Source of the DNA: Parcubacteria group bacterium Greene0714_7
GTDB lineage: Bacteria > Patescibacteriota > Minisyncoccia > Phycocordibacterales > Phycocordibacteraceae
Assembly (NCBI GenBank): GCA_007378985.1
Contig: VMHB01000004.1
Coordinates: 1,012-64,474, forward strand
Length of the DNA: 63,463 nt
Reading direction: 5' to 3'
Shown here piece after piece: positions 28,635 through 56,325 of this stretch (positions are counted from its first letter, which is position 1; each line of letters starts with the position of its first letter). Both the position numbers and the translations under genes were made by a program. The notes beneath the pieces were generated by a model. The model was not told the DNA's origin. It searched no databases and saw only the letters and a list, made by a program, of their open reading frames with translations.

Positions 28635-28987
28635 ACGTATATATGGAAGTCTGAGATTACATCGTTAGCAATAATATGTACATCTATCTTCTTATTCAGA
28701 ATATCCTATTCAAACACTTTGCGTGAGTCACCATTGATGAGCTTGCACATAATGCTCCCGCGTTGCCCACATCTCCAGGGCCGATGTCTATGTACAGATG
28801 TGCGCCCACGCGCACATCTACGCAAAAATAGCGTCAATGAGGCCCGAGAGCGAGCGTTTGTCTTGCACTAGAGTAATATAAAACAAGTACAGTGCCCGTT
28901 CCCTTACCCCTTTAGTTAACTAAAGGAGTTGAGAGATGTTTATAAAGAAAGGAGTAACACAACGTGGCACCATTTCCTCTTTTTGAC

Positions 28988-29029
28988 ATATAGCTCTCTA
29001 TTAGACGGCCGTCTAATAGAGAGCTATAT
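28988..29029. promoter_or_regulatory. Palindrome A3 (42 nt, perfect)
   Basis: ATATAGCTCTCTATTAGACGG/CCGTCTAATAGAGAGCTATAT. Confidence 0.5.
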
Positions 29030-29074
29030 GTAGCAATGCGGATTATCCAATTTCTCACGAGGTATACTGTGACA

Positions 29075-29371: not shown

Positions 29372-29445
29372 GTCGCATTCACACACACCGCAAAGCAACG
29401 AGTGCGCCGGACTCCCCTAACAAAAAGCTACACCCACTCGGAACC

Positions 29446-29487
29446 ATATCGCTCTCTAACAGACGGCCGTCTGTTAGAGAGCGATAT
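29446..29487. promoter_or_regulatory. Palindrome A4 (42 nt, perfect)
   Basis: ATATCGCTCTCTAACAGACGG/CCGTCTGTTAGAGAGCGATAT. Lies between convergent genes, so it may act as a terminator. Confidence 0.45.
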
Positions 29488-29541
29488 GTGAAAGAAAACG
29501 GCAACTTTAAAAAACATCAGATACATTTAAAACTCTCTGCC

Positions 29542-30537
29542 CTAAAGCAACACACGTCTTCCTTCACGGGCGGAAATACGCATAGCCTCCAAAACACTTG
29601 CTTGGCGGATGATACGGTCGTACATTTCTTTAAACTGTTTAGTATTCTGTGCAATAACAGCTTGGCAAAAGAAATCAAAACTAAGGGCGAATTGATTTGC
29701 TGTTGGGATTTCTAAACTCACGAGTGTGTCTTTGGCACCATCGTTGGTTATGAGCTCGACAGTCGGTGCCATCATAGGTGGTATCGCAAATGCGCGATTC
29801 GTGCGCACCATTCCTTTGGAACCCCACACCGAATAGGTATTTTGATAGAGGTGATCGAAACCAAATGACATTAGCGCAGTTCCCTTTTCAAATTCAAGAA
29901 GTGCCGAGCCTTTGATATCAACGCCTGCACCGGCGTTTGAAAGCGTACAAGTAACAGCAACCGGTTCTTGCTGCATAATCTTTCGTGCCATGAAAACCGT
30001 ATAGCAACCTGCATCGTTGAGGGCACCACCCTTCAAGTCCGCACTATAGCGAATATCACCAGACGGGAACGGTGGGAATCCGTACGCACCACTCCACACA
30101 TGTGGTGTGCCGATTTTCCCTTCTGCAATGAGTGATAGAATCGTCGCGTGTTGTGGGTGAAACTCGGGAACGAAATTCTCATACAGTGCAACGCCGTTTT
30201 CTCGACATACATCTACCATACGCTTCGCCGACTCGAGACTATAGGTAATCGACTTCTCGCAGATGATGTGTTTTCCAGACTGCGCCGCCTGTAGTACCCA
30301 CTCTTCCTGAAGTCCAACAGGAAGCGGACTGTATATGACATCAATATCACTACGCACAATCAAGGAATCATAGGTCTCGGCTTCTAATCCATGACGCTCT
30401 GCCCACTCATCTGCCTTACTCTTCTCGCGACTCGCTATCGCAACAAGCCCTACATTTGGTAATGACCTGAATGCTGGTATCGCGTATTTCTCTGCGATGT
30501 TTGCACAACCTAGAATACCGACACGAATTTTTTTCAT
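29542..30537 (-). CDS. Gfo/Idh/MocA-family oxidoreductase (candidate NDP-hexose 3-ketoreductase)
   Basis: MKKIRVGILGCANIAEKYAIPAF plus pathway context. Confidence 0.8.
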   Translation of the reverse strand: MKKIRVGILGCANIAEKYAIPAFRSLPNVGLVAIASREKSKADEWAERHGLEAETYDSLIVRSDIDVIYSPLPVGLQEEWVLQAAQSGKHIICEKSITYSLESAKRMVDVCRENGVALYENFVPEFHPQHATILSLIAEGKIGTPHVWSGAYGFPPFPSGDIRYSADLKGGALNDAGCYTVFMARKIMQQEPVAVTCTLSNAGAGVDIKGSALLEFEKGTALMSFGFDHLYQNTYSVWGSKGMVRTNRAFAIPPMMAPTVELITNDGAKDTLVSLEIPTANQFALSFDFFCQAVIAQNTKQFKEMYDRIIRQASVLEAMRISAREGRRVLL

Positions 30538-30538
30538 A

Positions 30539-30850
30539 CCCCCACACCTTTTATCTCATAAAATGCTTCTTGAAATCCGCCTTTTGAGTTGCCCGAGTGC
30601 TTTCCCGTCTTTTTTGAGAGAAAATTCTCTACCCCTCGCGTCTCGTTCTGAAGTGTAGGACTCATAGTAGCGAAGCTCAAAAGGTCGACGAGGCTTGGTA
30701 GATTTAACCATTCCGCCATTGTGCTCGGAAAATCTTCGACGCAAATCATTTGTCGATCCAACATATAACTTTTCATCTTTGAGGCTTTTAAGTACATATA
30801 CGTAATACATAGAGAATTGATTTGCGTCAATGAGATGAAAGGTGTGGGGG
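30539..30850. mobile_element. 312-nt family-2 TIR element carrying a GIY-YIG gene (13-bp perfect TIR, 5-bp TSD TATGA)
   Basis: Plus-strand TCATA at 30534-30538 and 30851-30855. TIRs are CCCCCACACCTTT and AAAGGTGTGGGGG. Confidence 0.55.
30556..30810 (-). CDS. GIY-YIG nuclease family protein (84 aa)
   Basis: MYYVYVLKSLKDEKLYVGSTNDLRRRFSEHNGG. Confidence 0.85.
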   Translation of the reverse strand: MYYVYVLKSLKDEKLYVGSTNDLRRRFSEHNGGMVKSTKPRRPFELRYYESYTSERDARGREFSLKKDGKALGQLKRRISRSIL

Positions 30851-31513
30851 TCATAGCAAAGCGCATACATTACGCGCGAGAGAATTAACCGTCGTATCAA
30901 CGCGCAAGAGTTTCTTAATCTCGGGGAGTGTGAGCCAAATGTAATCTTCAGTAACAGGCACTTCTTCTGATTCGTCCACCTCCACAAGCATTGAGCGATT
31001 CACCTTATGGAAAAACCGACCACCGTCTTCGACGCCCAAAACTGATGCAATGAGTCTTCCTTTCGTCCCGTCAAAATATTCAGCAAGCCGTGGGCGCTTT
31101 CCCCCATGCGCTTGCGCCAGATTGCCTTCGGAAACCTGACATGCGGGCGATATCTGCACACTGTTGATATTCCCCGGCTCAAATTTTGCATAGAAAAGAT
31201 ACTTTGTGACACCATCTTTCTTTTGCACTAACACGCCTGAAATACCGACCTCTTCCTGTTTCAACATCGGCTGACTCCACGACGGCACTTCCCTGTCCGA
31301 GGCACCTGTTATCTTTACGCCAATAATCGAGAAAAATTTTCCTGACTCATGCGTGATATTTCCACTTACAGGATCTGTTTTCCAACCCTGCACATCATTT
31401 ACTCCGACCGCTTCCACAGTGACTGGGTACGACTCCTGCTTTTCTTTGAGCCACGCGAGAATGGGCTTGATGTCAGTGTCTTCGTTCTTAGAAATGAAAG
31501 GTGTTGGGGTCAT
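30851..31513 (-). CDS. NDP-hexose 2,3-dehydratase-like protein, single-domain (half-size) form
   Basis: SGKFFSIIGV, SWSQPML, GISGVLVQKKDGVTKYLFYAKFEPGN. 220 aa, versus the two-domain enzymes I recall. Confidence 0.55.
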   Translation of the reverse strand: MTPTPFISKNEDTDIKPILAWLKEKQESYPVTVEAVGVNDVQGWKTDPVSGNITHESGKFFSIIGVKITGASDREVPSWSQPMLKQEEVGISGVLVQKKDGVTKYLFYAKFEPGNINSVQISPACQVSEGNLAQAHGGKRPRLAEYFDGTKGRLIASVLGVEDGGRFFHKVNRSMLVEVDESEEVPVTEDYIWLTLPEIKKLLRVDTTVNSLARNVCALL

Positions 31514-32739
31514 ACGATTTCAACGCTAGGGATAGGGATAATGAATTTCGCACCGCGTGCACGCAATTCTTTTTCTTTTTCGAGAATGAAGTCGCGGTAG
31601 TTCCATGCAAGAAGTAGAACATACTCCGGCGTCTCGGTCTTTAGTATATCGGGAGAAACGACTGGAATATGACTCCCTGGTGTAAGGAGTCCAATTTTGT
31701 ACGGAGTTGTATCAGTAACATACTCAATATCATCTTGAGTAAAGCCACAAAAATTAAGAAGAGTGTTGCCCTTGGCTGGCGCGCCGTAAGCGACCACCTT
31801 CTTTTTTTCTCTGCGTATTTGGCGCACGAGCGACACGAGCTTCTCTTTAATTGCTTCTGCATCTTTCTGGAAATCAGCAAATCGTGCGAGTGAATGTAGC
31901 CCTGCTTTCTCTTCCAGCGCGAAAAGTTCGTGCACAGAATTTTCAATCGGTAATCCGGACGCCTTGCGAGCAAAGACACGAATAGACCCACCATGCGTCG
32001 GCATGCGCACTACATTAAATACTTCCATACCAAACCGACCAAATAAGTGTTGCAGAGGCTTCACGCTGTAGTAGCACAAATGCTCGTGATACACCGTATC
32101 AAATTCCCCATGCTCCACGAGGTCTAGCAAATAGTGTGATTCCGATACGAACACGCCGTCATCGGTAAGAAGGTCTTTTACCCCTTGCACAATTTCATCA
32201 AGGTCGTCTATGTGCGCAAAAACATTGTTGGCAGAAATAACCTTCGCCTTGCCATGCATTTCTATTATTCGTTTCGCCATTTCAATAGTAAAGAAGCCAC
32301 TCTCAGTTTCGATTCCTTTTGCGCGCGCAGCTTCGGCAACATTCGCCGATGGCTCAATACCAAGCACGCGATGTGTGCCGACGAAATTTTGTAACAAAAT
32401 GCCATCATTACTGCCAATATCAACAATGAGGTCACCTGGGGCCACATGTTCACTTTTCAAATCATCCGCATACGAACGAAAGTGGTCAACGAGCGGTTTA
32501 GAAGCAGAGGAAAAATACGCATACTCACCGTGAAAAAGTTCGTCTTCCGCAACCACATCGAGGAGTTGCACCAGATTGCAGGTACCGCAAAAATACACAT
32601 CTAGGGGATACCGTTTTTCGTCTTTGAGGTGTTCGGCATCAGTAAAATTATCAACTGGCGGATGCTCGCCAAGCGAGAGAATGCGCGTGAGACTAGAGCC
32701 TTTGCACACACGACAGGTAACATTGCGAAGATGGCTCAT
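31510..32739 (-). CDS. NDP-hexose C-methyltransferase (Zn-ribbon plus SAM-MT plus C-terminal domain)
   Basis: CRVCKG..CGTCNLVQL, LIVDIGSNDG. Start placed at MSHLRNV, 4 nt after the leader ORF stop. Confidence 0.75.
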   Translation of the reverse strand: MSHLRNVTCRVCKGSSLTRILSLGEHPPVDNFTDAEHLKDEKRYPLDVYFCGTCNLVQLLDVVAEDELFHGEYAYFSSASKPLVDHFRSYADDLKSEHVAPGDLIVDIGSNDGILLQNFVGTHRVLGIEPSANVAEAARAKGIETESGFFTIEMAKRIIEMHGKAKVISANNVFAHIDDLDEIVQGVKDLLTDDGVFVSESHYLLDLVEHGEFDTVYHEHLCYYSVKPLQHLFGRFGMEVFNVVRMPTHGGSIRVFARKASGLPIENSVHELFALEEKAGLHSLARFADFQKDAEAIKEKLVSLVRQIRREKKKVVAYGAPAKGNTLLNFCGFTQDDIEYVTDTTPYKIGLLTPGSHIPVVSPDILKTETPEYVLLLAWNYRDFILEKEKELRARGAKFIIPIPSVEIV

Positions 32740-32858
32740 CCCGTTAGAAGTAGGAAGCTTGTGCTTCCGACTCAAGATTAAATTTCATAATCATACGACC
32801 TAGAATACAGCATTCAGAAAGGATATCACTTCCCAAACTTCCGCGACTTCTAACGGGA
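32739..32858. mobile_element. 120-nt MITE-like element, family 1 (13-bp perfect TIR TCCCGTTAGAAGT/ACTTCTAACGGGA, 4-bp TSD)
   Basis: Plus-strand CTCA at 32735-32738 and 32859-32862. Confidence 0.55.
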
Positions 32859-32863
32859 CTCAT
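32744..32863 (-). CDS. 39-codon leader ORF spanning the family-1 element (MSPVRSRGSLGSDILSECCILGRMIMKFNLESEAQASYF)
   Basis: Same layout as 10532..10648: TAA inside the right TIR, 4 nt before the main ATG. Confidence 0.4.
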   Translation of the reverse strand: MSPVRSRGSLGSDILSECCILGRMIMKFNLESEAQASYF

Positions 32864-32887
32864 AGCACGCAGTATACCGAACGACTG

Positions 32888-33721
32888 TTATGCCTTCCAT
32901 TCCTCGGACACATACTCGGCAAGTGCCTCTTGCCACGGTCGGAGAGTTATCCGTTTTGAGGAAATAGATTCGTTTGTTGGAAGCGTTGTGCTGGATGCGA
33001 AGTAACTTCGATCGACAGCACGCACGTGTGCGTCTGGCTTTACGTGGGTAGCCATTGCAGTAGCGAGGTCAAAGCGCGTAGCGGTACCAGCATTTGCAAT
33101 GTGAAATATGCCCCGCTCGCCTTTTTCGAGCAGGTCTTTAATCGTTGCAACAAAATCTTTCCCGTATGTTGGCGAACCGTGCACATCGTAGAGAGCGGTG
33201 ACCTCTGTGCCCGACTGCAATTGTTTTAGGACTTTGCCGTAAAATTTATTGTCTCGATCAACTCCCCCGCCAAATACCCACGCGGTGCGAGCGATGATGT
33301 ACGACTCTACAAGTGATGCGACGATGAGCTCACTGATATATTTAGTGCGACCGTAGTGCGTCTGTGGATCTGGCGCGTCATCTTCAGTGTACGGACCTTT
33401 TTTGTGTCCGTCGAAAACACGCGAACTCGAAGCGAGAACCATGGTCGCGCCAACTGATGTGGCAGCTTGCGCCACATTGTAGGTACCGCGCACATTAAGC
33501 TCGTAGGCATACAGGGGATCCTGTTCTGTTTTCATCATGTCGGTTGCGCCTGCGAGGTGAATAATAGCGCTTGGATTGTTTTTTTTGACGAACTCCATGA
33601 CTGCATCTGCATCAAGAATATCGAGTGTCGTGTGGTCAGGACGATAACCGAAATCCACATACGAACCAATCATTCCGCCGGCACCAATGGTAAGAACTTT
33701 TTCGAAATCAAAAGAGTTCAT
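32888..33721 (-). CDS. NAD(P)-dependent sugar reductase/epimerase (RmlD-like, candidate 4-ketoreductase)
   Basis: VLTIGAGGMIGSY, YGRTKYISE. Confidence 0.7.
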   Translation of the reverse strand: MNSFDFEKVLTIGAGGMIGSYVDFGYRPDHTTLDILDADAVMEFVKKNNPSAIIHLAGATDMMKTEQDPLYAYELNVRGTYNVAQAATSVGATMVLASSSRVFDGHKKGPYTEDDAPDPQTHYGRTKYISELIVASLVESYIIARTAWVFGGGVDRDNKFYGKVLKQLQSGTEVTALYDVHGSPTYGKDFVATIKDLLEKGERGIFHIANAGTATRFDLATAMATHVKPDAHVRAVDRSYFASSTTLPTNESISSKRITLRPWQEALAEYVSEEWKA

Positions 33722-33861
33722 ACCCCCACACTAATACTGCTGTAATTCTTGCCGAACAGACTCCAGCGACCAGTGGAGTTTTCGTACCCTAAAATAACTT
33801 TTCTAATTCTCTTGTATGTATTCATAATCTGAGGCAACAGCAGTATTAGTGTAGGGGTCAT
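33718..33861 (-). CDS. 47-codon bridge ORF through the element (MTPTLILLLPQIMNTYKRIRKVILGYENSTGRWSLFGKNYSSISVGV)
   Basis: Its ATG overlaps the rmlA stop (ATGA). Its TGA overlaps the reductase ATG (ATGA). Confidence 0.4.
   Translation of the reverse strand: MTPTLILLLPQIMNTYKRIRKVILGYENSTGRWSLFGKNYSSISVGV
33723..33857. mobile_element. 135-nt family-2 TIR element (20-nt TIR, 5-bp TSD TATGA)
   Basis: Plus-strand TCATA at 33718-33722 and 33858-33862. TIRs are CCCCCACACTAATACTGCTG and CAGCAGTATTAGTGTAGGGG. Confidence 0.55.
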
Positions 33862-51907: not shown

Positions 51908-51994
51908 GAAACTAGTGTATAGCGTTTAGCGTTGAGGGTCTAGCGAAGACACAAATATACAAAGAGACTAAGTGGCTAAATGATTAAATAGAGA

Positions 51995-52036
51995 CGATAT
52001 AGTTTAATCTAACGATCGTTAGATTAAACTATATCG
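51995..52036. promoter_or_regulatory. Palindrome B1 (42 nt, perfect)
   Basis: CGATATAGTTTAATCTAACGA/TCGTTAGATTAAACTATATCG. Lies 88 nt upstream of the ATG at 51907. Confidence 0.5.
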
Positions 52037-52652: not shown

Positions 52653-52737
52653 ATGCGATTTAGCGAAATCGTGTCGCGCACCGTCTCTTAAGACGCGACC
52701 CGAAAAAAAATAATGTAGTAAAATTCTTAAATAATAA

Positions 52738-52779
52738 CGATATAGTTTAATCTAACGATCGTTAAATTATACTATATCG
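52738..52779. promoter_or_regulatory. Palindrome B2 (42 nt, 2 mismatches)
   Basis: Lies 86 nt upstream of the regulator ATG at 52652. 39 nt are identical to B3. Confidence 0.5.
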
Positions 52780-52825
52780 TAAGAATATAAGGAATATAGT
52801 GCAAAACCAGTTATACCCGAGAACA

Positions 52826-56219: not shown

Positions 56220-56283
56220 CCCTACATCTTCTTCCTCTGGTGGAAATATGCCACCCGTTCCTCCACAATTAAGTGGAAAACCT

Positions 56284-56325
56284 CGATATAGTTTAATCTA
56301 ACGATCGTTAAATTATACTATACAA
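56284..56325. promoter_or_regulatory. Palindrome B3 (copy of B2, outer 3' end degenerate)
   Basis: Lies 65 nt upstream of the ATG at 56219. Confidence 0.5.

Follow-up and report, generated by a model that had tools for sequence, protein, structure and literature searches.

We analyzed a stretch of 63,463 nucleotides from Parcubacteria group bacterium Greene0714_7 (contig VMHB01000004.1, positions 1,012 to 64,474 of the forward strand; hereafter the window), in which a 120-bp element bounded by inverted repeats, designated element B, lies at the start codon of a sugar C-methyltransferase gene. With a probability of about three in four, element B is a non-autonomous member, similar to MITEs (miniature transposable elements with inverted repeats), of a GIY-YIG-associated family that inserts at start codons in the ultra-small bacteria of the Candidate Phyla Radiation (CPR; Patescibacteria). 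Members of this family (family 1) are inserted at A|TGNN of start codons, are flanked by a 4-nt duplication, rebuild the ATG with their own terminal A and lie in a fixed orientation relative to the gene. The features of the element B locus, and a sister element elsewhere in the window, are:

31510..32739, minus strand: host gene, sugar C-methyltransferase, 409 aa (Pfam PF08421, PF13489, PF08484)
32735..32738, minus strand: downstream copy of the target-site duplication (TSD), TGAG (plus strand CTCA)
32739..32858, minus strand: family-1 non-autonomous element B, 120 bp, co-oriented with the methyltransferase gene
32739..32751, minus strand: 3' (gene-proximal) terminal inverted repeat (TIR) of element B, minus strand ACTTCTAACGGGA
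32744..32863, minus strand: 39-codon leader open reading frame (ORF), from the original ATG to a TAA in the gene-proximal repeat
32750..32845, minus strand: subterminal stem-2 arms and variable interior of element B
32846..32858, minus strand: 5' (gene-upstream) TIR of element B, minus strand TCCCGTTAGAAGT
32859..32862, minus strand: upstream copy of the TSD, TGAG (plus strand CTCA)
10527..10643, minus strand: sister family-1 element A, 117 bp, located at the start codon of the gene for a 786-aa membrane/TPR protein

The original prediction had placed TIRs at 32739-32751 and 32846-32858, flanked by a CTCA duplication; both were found as described, and the 13-bp repeats are perfect (13/13 positions complementary), with TCCCGTTAGAAGT at 32739-32751 and ACTTCTAACGGGA at 32846-32858 when read on the plus strand. 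On the minus strand, the locus reads gtgctATGAG|TCCCGTTAGAAGT...ACTTCTAACGGGA|TGAGCCATCTT. The original start codon (ATG#1, 32863-32861) consists of the A at 32863 followed by the TG of the upstream TGAG copy, while the final base of the gene-proximal repeat (A, 32739) forms the A of a rebuilt start codon (ATG#2, 32739-32737). The same repeat holds a TAA (32746-32744), which ends a 39-codon ORF that starts at ATG 32863, again as predicted; the junction after this leader thus reads TAA, CGGG and then ATG 32739, i.e., the stop codon is separated from the rebuilt start by 4 nt. The leader is the sole ORF of element B and shows no Pfam match, although one public assembly annotates it as a protein-coding gene (L203, 1470-1589). 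Just within the 5' and 3' repeats lie the arms of a second stem (CGCGGAAG and GCTTCCTAC, respectively, on the minus strand). The border between repeat and duplication is ambiguous by 1 nt, as the element may be read as T...A with TGAG duplicated or as TCCCG...CGGG with ATGAG duplicated; we favor the former reading because of the symmetry of the repeats and because of two possible copies at GTG and TTG start codons (in L158 and L156, see below).

Comparison with the closest relatives of this locus, L204 (SCTS01000002; methyltransferase 95% identical) and L205 (JBBAAE010000008; 97% identical), identified an empty site with identical flanks, ...GTGCT|ATGAGCCATC..., in both. The predicted minus-strand target, A|TGAG, was borne out by this site, which reads GTGCT|ATGAGCC, or, with its wider surroundings, ...GGAATGGAAGG(C/T)ATAACAGTCGTTCGGTATACTGCGTGCT|ATGAGCCATCTTCG...; the junction sequence of the empty allele is GTGCTATGAGCCATC. 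The 29 bases directly 5' of the ATG are the same in the window, L204 and L205, and L204 shows two differences farther upstream. The filled site is 124 bp longer than the empty one, the difference being the 120-bp element and the 4-bp TGAG duplication. As an orthologous empty site exists in both relatives, element B is a real, recent and precise mobile-element insertion at A|TGAG that took place after the split from these close relatives.

Recognition of the insertion also settles the start of the host gene. All 16 orthologous methyltransferase loci (16/16) are without the repeat upstream and start with an ATG at the position equivalent to 32739, and PF08421, the N-terminal zinc-binding domain, covers residues 9-69 of the 409-aa protein. 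A public gene catalogue contains the 409-aa product; the 421-aa product that would start at TTG 32775 is absent from it. As TTG 32775 falls within element B, the longer ORF is an artefact, and the true methyltransferase start is ATG 32739, in agreement with what had been proposed from the window sequence.

The grouping of element B with the element at 10527-10643 as TIR- and TSD-bearing insertions of one family also held. Element A duplicates TGAA (minus strand; plus-strand positions 10523-10526 and 10644-10647), and its layout, ggATGAA|TCCCGTTAGAAAT...ATTTCTAACGGGA|TGAAATTAG, matches that of element B. A 17-nt terminal motif (allowing up to 3 mismatches) occurs four times in the window, i.e., at both ends of elements A and B, as compared to a mean of 0.14 occurrences in shuffled windows; none of 100 shuffles reached four. 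Genome loci collected with the pattern TCCCGTTAGAA-N80-110-TTCTAACGGGA showed family-1 termini in at least 120 loci. Nearly all matches listed carry labels of Patescibacteria/CPR metagenome-assembled genomes (MAGs), with Saccharibacteria, Paceibacterota/Parcubacteria, Kaiser-, Nomura-, Jorgensen-, Doudna- and Levybacteria among them, and a few matches listed are labelled Omnitrophota, Planctomycetia or Gammaproteobacteria (record labels as given). Searches of IMG/VR viral contigs (with the short and long forms) and of PLSDB plasmids yielded zero matches to the elements.

Insertion at gene start codons is the defining habit of family 1, a family-wide property that reaches beyond what had been noted for the window. 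The ATG is rebuilt, from the terminal A and a flanking TG (or CA on the other side), in 125 of 130 copies, as compared to approx. 12% expected by chance, and in 118 of 128 copies (approx. 92%) this ATG is the start of an ORF with 65 codons or more. Perfect ATGNN|...|TGNN duplications were observed with 4 nt in 83 copies, with 3 nt in 11 copies and with 5 nt in 5 copies; in 29 copies, the upstream ATG and duplication were not recognized. Mismatched duplications are occasionally found, e.g., ATGAA...TGAGA in L028 and L070. The upstream ATG represents a genuine 5' end of an ORF, with an upstream in-frame stop at a median distance of approx. 6 codons, and many insertion sites are located -1 to 24 nt past the stop codon of the previous gene. 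Among 98 non-redundant reconstructed target sites, the sequence logo is A|TG-R-R (AA in 53, GA in 19, AG in 15 and CG in 5 sites), and there is zero information outside ATG-R-R, with no Shine-Dalgarno or other fixed motif. In the 1.25 Mb of fetched loci, long ORFs have ATGRR at their first ATG in 550 cases, and unmasked DNA contains 2481 occurrences; approx. 95% of the copies are located at ORF starts, as compared to approx. 18% expected under a motif-only model with purifying selection, an expectation that relies on a crude ORF mask and is likely an underestimate. Pairs of elements inserted in tandem were also seen, with a separate TGAA copy for each, and the rebuilt site thus stays a target. 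The 135 target genes match 170 Pfam families and are mutually unrelated; as some of these families, namely FtsH, SSB, ClpP, SecD/F, ribosomal protein L17 and RuvX, are known to be essential in bacteria that have been studied well, insertion must be compatible with expression of the downstream gene. A rough estimate gave no sign of many decayed intergenic copies that survive as solo or degenerate repeats (43 one-mismatch 10-mers in approx. 1 Mb, against approx. 59 expected by chance). Four copies (L015 1052-1063, L039 4800-4811, L080 6250-6261 and L082 5089-5100) show ...ACTTG upstream in place of ATGNN and no duplication; two of these follow a degenerate element end, ...GGGACTTG|TCCCG, giving a recurrent junction type.

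Longer relatives of element B carry a gene. The first version of approx. 280 bp with an internal ORF was seen in L064, and the product of this ORF is a GIY-YIG domain, matching PF01541 with E about 1e-16. Two proteins of this type were used as queries and led to 495 genome loci, of which 80 were kept; approx. 45 of these 80 have the borders (A)TCCCGTTAGAGAT...ATCTCTAACGGGA(T), a length of 275-281 bp and atgNN|...|TGNN flanks. Other GIY-YIG relatives have the variant repeats ATCCCGTACGAAAT, ACCCTGTTAAAT and ACCCCGTCAAATTGG. These long relatives, typically approx. 278 bp, thus consist of 13-bp inverted repeats like those of element B and one gene, coding for an 84-aa Slx1/UPF0213-like GIY-YIG nuclease, whose ATG lies 5 nt inside the left repeat and whose reading frame terminates at the TAA of the right repeat. 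In 38 of 40 long copies, an ATG is rebuilt on the downstream side of the nuclease ORF, and each rebuilt ATG opens at least 87 codons; the nuclease ORF is co-oriented with the host gene, and none of the copies is clearly reversed. Across 26 aligned 278-bp copies from several CPR lineages, DNA identity is 77-96% and pN/pS for the nuclease ORF is approx. 0.05, which indicates that the nuclease is under strong purifying selection.

By sequence comparison, the solved structures closest to the nuclease are those of the UPF0213 proteins 1ZG2 (phmmer E = 4e-8) and 1YWL (E = 6e-3), and the 84 aa represent a minimal catalytic domain with no accessory DNA-binding domain. UPF0213 proteins have been described as minimal prokaryotic nucleases of the Slx1 family and were treated as a vertically inherited group of putative repair or structure-specific nucleases, the eukaryotic Slx1 enzymes being structure-specific (Dunin-Horkawicz et al. 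2006; PMC1564403). The nuclease ends in ...RLGASYL*, or in ...GASYF* in two copies with AGAAAT repeats, and this C-terminus matches the ASYF* of both window leaders in DNA, as GC(T/A)TCCTA(C/T)TTCTAACGGGA. To judge from this DNA-level match, which the original prediction did not contain, the ASYF* of the leaders is a relic of the GIY-YIG C-terminus and stop codon, and the short elements are thus derivatives in which the termini of the coding element have been retained. In two loci, GIY-YIG elements are flanked by GAGTGG|...|TGGAAT (L158, approx. 1978-2266) and by TATTGG|...|TGGACA (L156, approx. 1490-1779); these may represent insertions at GTG and TTG starts with a 3-nt duplication, in which case the terminal A would convert the host start to ATG.

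If element B were an ordinary MITE moved by a conventional transposase encoded elsewhere, the GIY-YIG ORF would represent a passenger, or an addiction or homing module. TIRs with a 4-bp TSD are the classical signature of DDE transposons, and IS5, IS701 and IS1380 are DDE transposons with a TSD of about 4 bp; compared to these types, the long copies hold PF01541 GIY-YIG ORFs only and no DDE transposase gene. A conventional transposase would also accord with the absence of a family-1 GIY-YIG gene from the window, and GIY-YIG enzymes are known as nucleases rather than transposases (PMC1564403). However, the approx. 40 long copies and the repeat pairs in the 1.25 Mb of fetched loci enclose only the 84-aa GIY-YIG ORF, and kilobase-scale repeat pairs, as would be expected for conventional insertion sequences (ISs), were not found in these loci. 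Moreover, the ORF is built into the element ends, with its start and stop placed by the two repeats, at least two distinct repeat families each have their own GIY-YIG ORF in a similar layout, and the purifying selection on the nuclease described above is strong. Overall, we consider mobilization by a conventional transposase unlikely. Among more specific candidates, IS200/IS605-type insertion was ruled out by the gene-specific nature of the duplicated bases, and Tc1/IS630 was ruled out by its TA target.

The orientation and folding of the copies were also investigated. A subterminal signature is located at the gene-upstream end in all 43 copies in which it is clear (43/43), and by comparison with the 3' end of the relatives that carry the nuclease, 102 copies scored as forward, 14 as reverse and 14 as tied (53 vs. 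2 for strong calls). The consensus hairpin derived from a 49-copy alignment has a terminal stem of 13 bp with covariation at positions 12 and 13, followed by a 4-nt bulge, yCTr, on the 3' arm and a 6-bp second stem with compensatory changes. In the window, the hairpins of both elements are more stable than those of shuffled sequences (z = -3.3 for element B and -3.6 for element A). The subfamily of element B is also present in L003 (Kaiserbacteria), L033, L073 and L076; approx. 24 nt at the 5' end and approx. 35 nt at the 3' end are conserved in this subfamily, while the central approx. 60 nt are unalignable. The two leader peptides had been predicted not to belong to a conserved peptide family, and this is supported by an interior that is unalignable within the subfamily and by the lack of a Pfam match, Pfam alone having been searched with the peptide.

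On the other hand, openness of the leader frame, which had been proposed as a conserved feature, is a real enrichment but not a conserved property of the family. Among 99 copies with an upstream ATG, the leader ends at an internal stop in 64, at the TAA in the repeat in 25 and at a TGA overlapping ATGA in 9, and one copy shows an in-frame fusion. The TAA frame is open through the whole element in 46 of 131 copies, compared to 11.6 +/- 3.2 (maximum 22) when interiors are shuffled, i.e., an approx. 4-fold enrichment, in which copies within a subfamily are not independent. This frame is open in 36 of 66 elements with a length that is a multiple of 3, and such lengths account for 63 copies as compared to 36 and 29 in the other two length classes. 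Selection for translational coupling could account for the enrichment, and so could mere descent from a 3' end that was once coding.

One could also hypothesize that element B is a domesticated cis-regulatory leader, in which the hairpin and short ORF regulate how the methyltransferase mRNA is translated or how stable it is, and are retained for this function. The stability of the element B hairpin, the covariation in the stems, the approx. 4-fold excess of open TAA frames and the fixed orientation relative to the gene are all consistent with such a role. A retained regulatory function is nevertheless hard to reconcile with relatives whose methyltransferase is 95-97% identical and that lack the element at this site, with host genes that are unrelated and match 170 Pfam families, and with the hypervariable interior; moreover, the conserved parts are those common to the nuclease-bearing mobile copies. 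Rfam 15 gave no match at gathering score in the whole window, and a search of 32600-33000 with E up to 10 gave one chance-level match (E = 8.8) and nothing credible. A promoter and terminator scan found no promoter-like or terminator-like site in 32500-33100, and an outward promoter or intrinsic terminator is thus without support. We therefore regard a domesticated regulatory leader as improbable.

Still less probable, to the point of being very doubtful, is an RNA-level intervening sequence, intron-like or otherwise processed, whose removal from the mRNA would give a spliced junction reading GTGCTATGAGCC and let the gene be translated as though nothing interrupted it. The long terminal helix does bring both ATGNN copies together, and strict sense orientation would follow from a process at the RNA level. 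However, Rfam contains no matching ribozyme or intron family, direct target duplications and tandem re-insertions are signatures of DNA transposition, the long relatives encode a DNA nuclease, and removal is unnecessary because an intact ATG is rebuilt. Group I and group II introns and bulge-helix-bulge introns were ruled out, as there is no matching model and no matching termini. Finally, a chance inverted repeat near a start codon can be dismissed: one perfect 13-bp inverted repeat within approx. 150 nt in 63 kb is not very rare (of order 0.1 by our own estimate), but no motif shuffle of 100 reached the observed count, the termini are common to at least 120 loci and a precise empty site exists.

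We thus return to a GIY-YIG-associated mobile family. On the sequence evidence, we are inclined to regard the GIY-YIG nuclease as the mobilizing enzyme. The nuclease would act in trans on the short copies, and would probably recognize a hairpin or cruciform formed by the element ends, which fits with the structure-specificity of the eukaryotic Slx1 enzymes (PMC1564403). Alternatively, breaks made by the nuclease might be repaired by copying an existing element via ATGRR microhomology on both sides, and such break-and-copy repair could also explain the 3-5-nt and mismatched duplications. Residence at a start codon may allow the element to borrow the promoter, ribosome-binding site, transcription and translation of its host gene, and may protect every copy from imprecise deletion, which would be lethal to the gene. 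Real starts would be either recognized mechanistically or enriched by retention.

For translation of the host gene downstream of the element, a termination-reinitiation model appears about as likely to hold as to fail. Ribosomes that start at the old ATG would terminate either at a TAA that precedes the rebuilt ATG by 4 nt or at a TGA that overlaps ATGA, and would restart at the rebuilt codon; for element B, the chain would run from the stop of the upstream gene over 24 nt to ATG#1, through 39 codons to the TAA and over 4 nt to ATG#2. By another route, the folded hairpin might bring the old initiation or ribosome-binding region next to the new ATG.

Several points weigh against this interpretation. 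Nucleases perform no strand transfer, so that excision or integration by an 84-aa GIY-YIG domain would need host repair or ligation. The 63-kb window contains zero family-1 GIY-YIG copies. The ATG-R-R logo alone fails to explain the preference for real starts, to which retention bias or a further targeting cue may contribute. As the leader frame is interrupted by internal stops in 64 of 99 copies, TAA-coupled reinitiation is not universal. The samples were drawn with intact-repeat patterns or from close protein relatives, such that old or degenerate copies and mutated copies away from starts are under-sampled, and all sequences are from MAGs.

Structurally, element B is a MITE: it is short, has TIRs and a TSD with an empty site, lacks a transposase ORF and belongs to a group with multiple copies (two in the window). 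The autonomous partner with the repeats, duplication and target of element B encodes a GIY-YIG nuclease as its only protein, for which transposase activity is not on record. Like bacterial MITEs such as the Correia elements of Neisseria and the Rickettsia palindromic elements, the short family-1 elements are approx. 100-150 bp, have TIRs, a short duplication and many copies, form hairpins when transcribed, are tolerated by the host when inserted in expressed regions and have a longer relative with common ends. Unlike these, family 1 targets start codons (A|TG-R-R), rebuilds the ATG by its terminal A and has a nearly always fixed orientation; its termini are conserved across many CPR lineages, and its longer relative encodes a GIY-YIG rather than a DDE enzyme. 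Correia elements duplicate TA, and Rickettsia palindromic elements sit in frame inside ORFs.

A GIY-YIG nuclease as the only gene of a selfish element also recalls free-standing GIY-YIG homing endonuclease genes (phage T4 Seg, I-TevI family), which likewise lie between host genes, are expressed with them and show presence/absence polymorphism in close relatives; this likeness applies to the long relatives, as all that element B retains of the GIY-YIG gene is its last codons and stop. In homing enzymes, DNA binding is assigned to a separate domain and the cognate target is long; their genes are copied by repair into the same allele and have neither TIRs nor a TSD, whereas family 1 has an 84-aa catalytic domain only, repeats with a duplication, hundreds of unrelated targets and non-coding derivatives. 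The stand-alone Slx1-like/UPF0213 proteins (1ZG2, 1YWL), which are the best sequence matches, share with the element nuclease the minimal architecture without accessory domains. The element gene differs from the UPF0213 group, considered vertically inherited (PMC1564403), in being framed by repeats and duplications and in being polymorphic between close relatives.

The stop-start junction, TAA-CGGG-ATG or TGA/ATGA, resembles that of a natural, translationally coupled gene pair; unlike ordinary coupled junctions, it is supplied ready-made by the inverted repeat of a mobile element, a likeness seen at the level of the DNA only. RAYTs are single-copy, domesticated HUH/Y1 enzymes, and REPINs are extragenic and show neither target duplication nor start-codon targeting. 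The similarity to REPIN-RAYT systems (PMC3116915) lies in short non-autonomous repeats that form hairpins and that a small dedicated nuclease or transposase would move in trans. Searches of the literature on GIY-YIG, MITEs, start codons, CPR and UPF0213 found no description of elements of the type reported here, most subscription journals being outside these searches, and the family is apparently undescribed in the literature searched. To our knowledge, there is no IS or MITE family with a start-codon target or with a partner that encodes a minimal GIY-YIG protein only.

On balance, we lean slightly towards a previously unrecognized class of prokaryotic transposons that would have a minimal Slx1-like GIY-YIG nuclease as its only protein, a start-codon target (A|TG-R-R), a fixed orientation, a rebuilt ATG and a ready-made stop-start junction, with several repeat lineages and non-coding derivatives across CPR/Patescibacteria. 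If the nuclease mobilizes these elements, it would represent a new enzyme class beside the DDE, HUH, serine, tyrosine, Cas1 and DEDD types of transposases, and the elements would represent a case of a bacterial element using the start codon as a safe harbor. Independent of the enzyme, the family accounts for wrongly called starts and for spurious small ORFs in CPR genomes (e.g., the 421-aa TTG start and the 39-aa "gene") and supplies strain-level presence/absence markers as well as evidence of recent DNA exchange between CPR lineages. It also raises the question of how translation restarts past a hairpin of 120-280 nt between the ribosome-binding region and the ATG, including in genes of the FtsH, SSB, ClpP, SecD/F and L17 families. 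A small nuclease-and-hairpin system with ATG-proximal specificity could, in addition, interest tool builders.

A second repeat family (family 2) in the window, with repeats ACCCCCACACC.../...GGTGTGGGGGT, its own GIY-YIG ORF and a duplication of (T)ATG(A), shows a start-codon habit like that of family 1. The following features of this family were found:

30538..30851, minus strand: full-length family-2 element, 314 bp, at the start codon of the oxidoreductase gene 29542-30537
33722..33858, minus strand: short non-autonomous family-2 element, 137 bp, at the start codon of the RmlD-like gene 32888-33721
12450-12494: family-2 palindrome of 45 nt
31490-31513: family-2 solo-repeat remnant, translated as the N-terminal extension MTPTPFIS-... 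of a dehydratase

The full-length element carries an 84-aa GIY-YIG ORF (30556-30810) and thus represents an example of the autonomous type within the window, and the RmlD-like gene is the gene directly upstream of the element B locus. Turnover was observed at all four start codons of the sugar operon (30537-33861) among the three close relatives, i.e., the window, L204 and L205. At the RmlD-like start, the window has the short family-2 element, L204 a solo-repeat remnant and L205 an empty site, and at the methyltransferase start, element B in the window corresponds to empty sites in both L204 and L205. The dehydratase start has the in-frame repeat remnant in the window, a full family-2 element in L204 and an empty site in L205; the oxidoreductase start has the full family-2 element in the window, an empty site in L204 and a 9-nt tandem repeat in L205. 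Judging from this comparison, the sugar operon is a hotspot of element turnover. The 9-nt tandem at the L205 oxidoreductase gene, ATGAAAAAT|ATGAAAAAAATC, might be an excision footprint.

Two further types of palindromes were observed in the window. A near-perfect palindrome of approx. 45 nt, CATAT(A/C)GCTCTCTA..AGACGG|CCGTCT..TAGAGAGCTATATG, whose ends read CAT and ATG, is present in four copies (12523-12567, 13120-13164, 28987-29031 and 29445-29489). The copy at 12523 begins at the start codon of the gene 10819-12525, and these palindromes may represent a third start-codon-associated repeat family or a bidirectional signal. Another palindromic unit, CGATATAGTTTAATCTAACGA|TCGTTAGATTAAACTATATCG, is present in three copies, at 51961-52036, 52704-52803 and 56250-56325.

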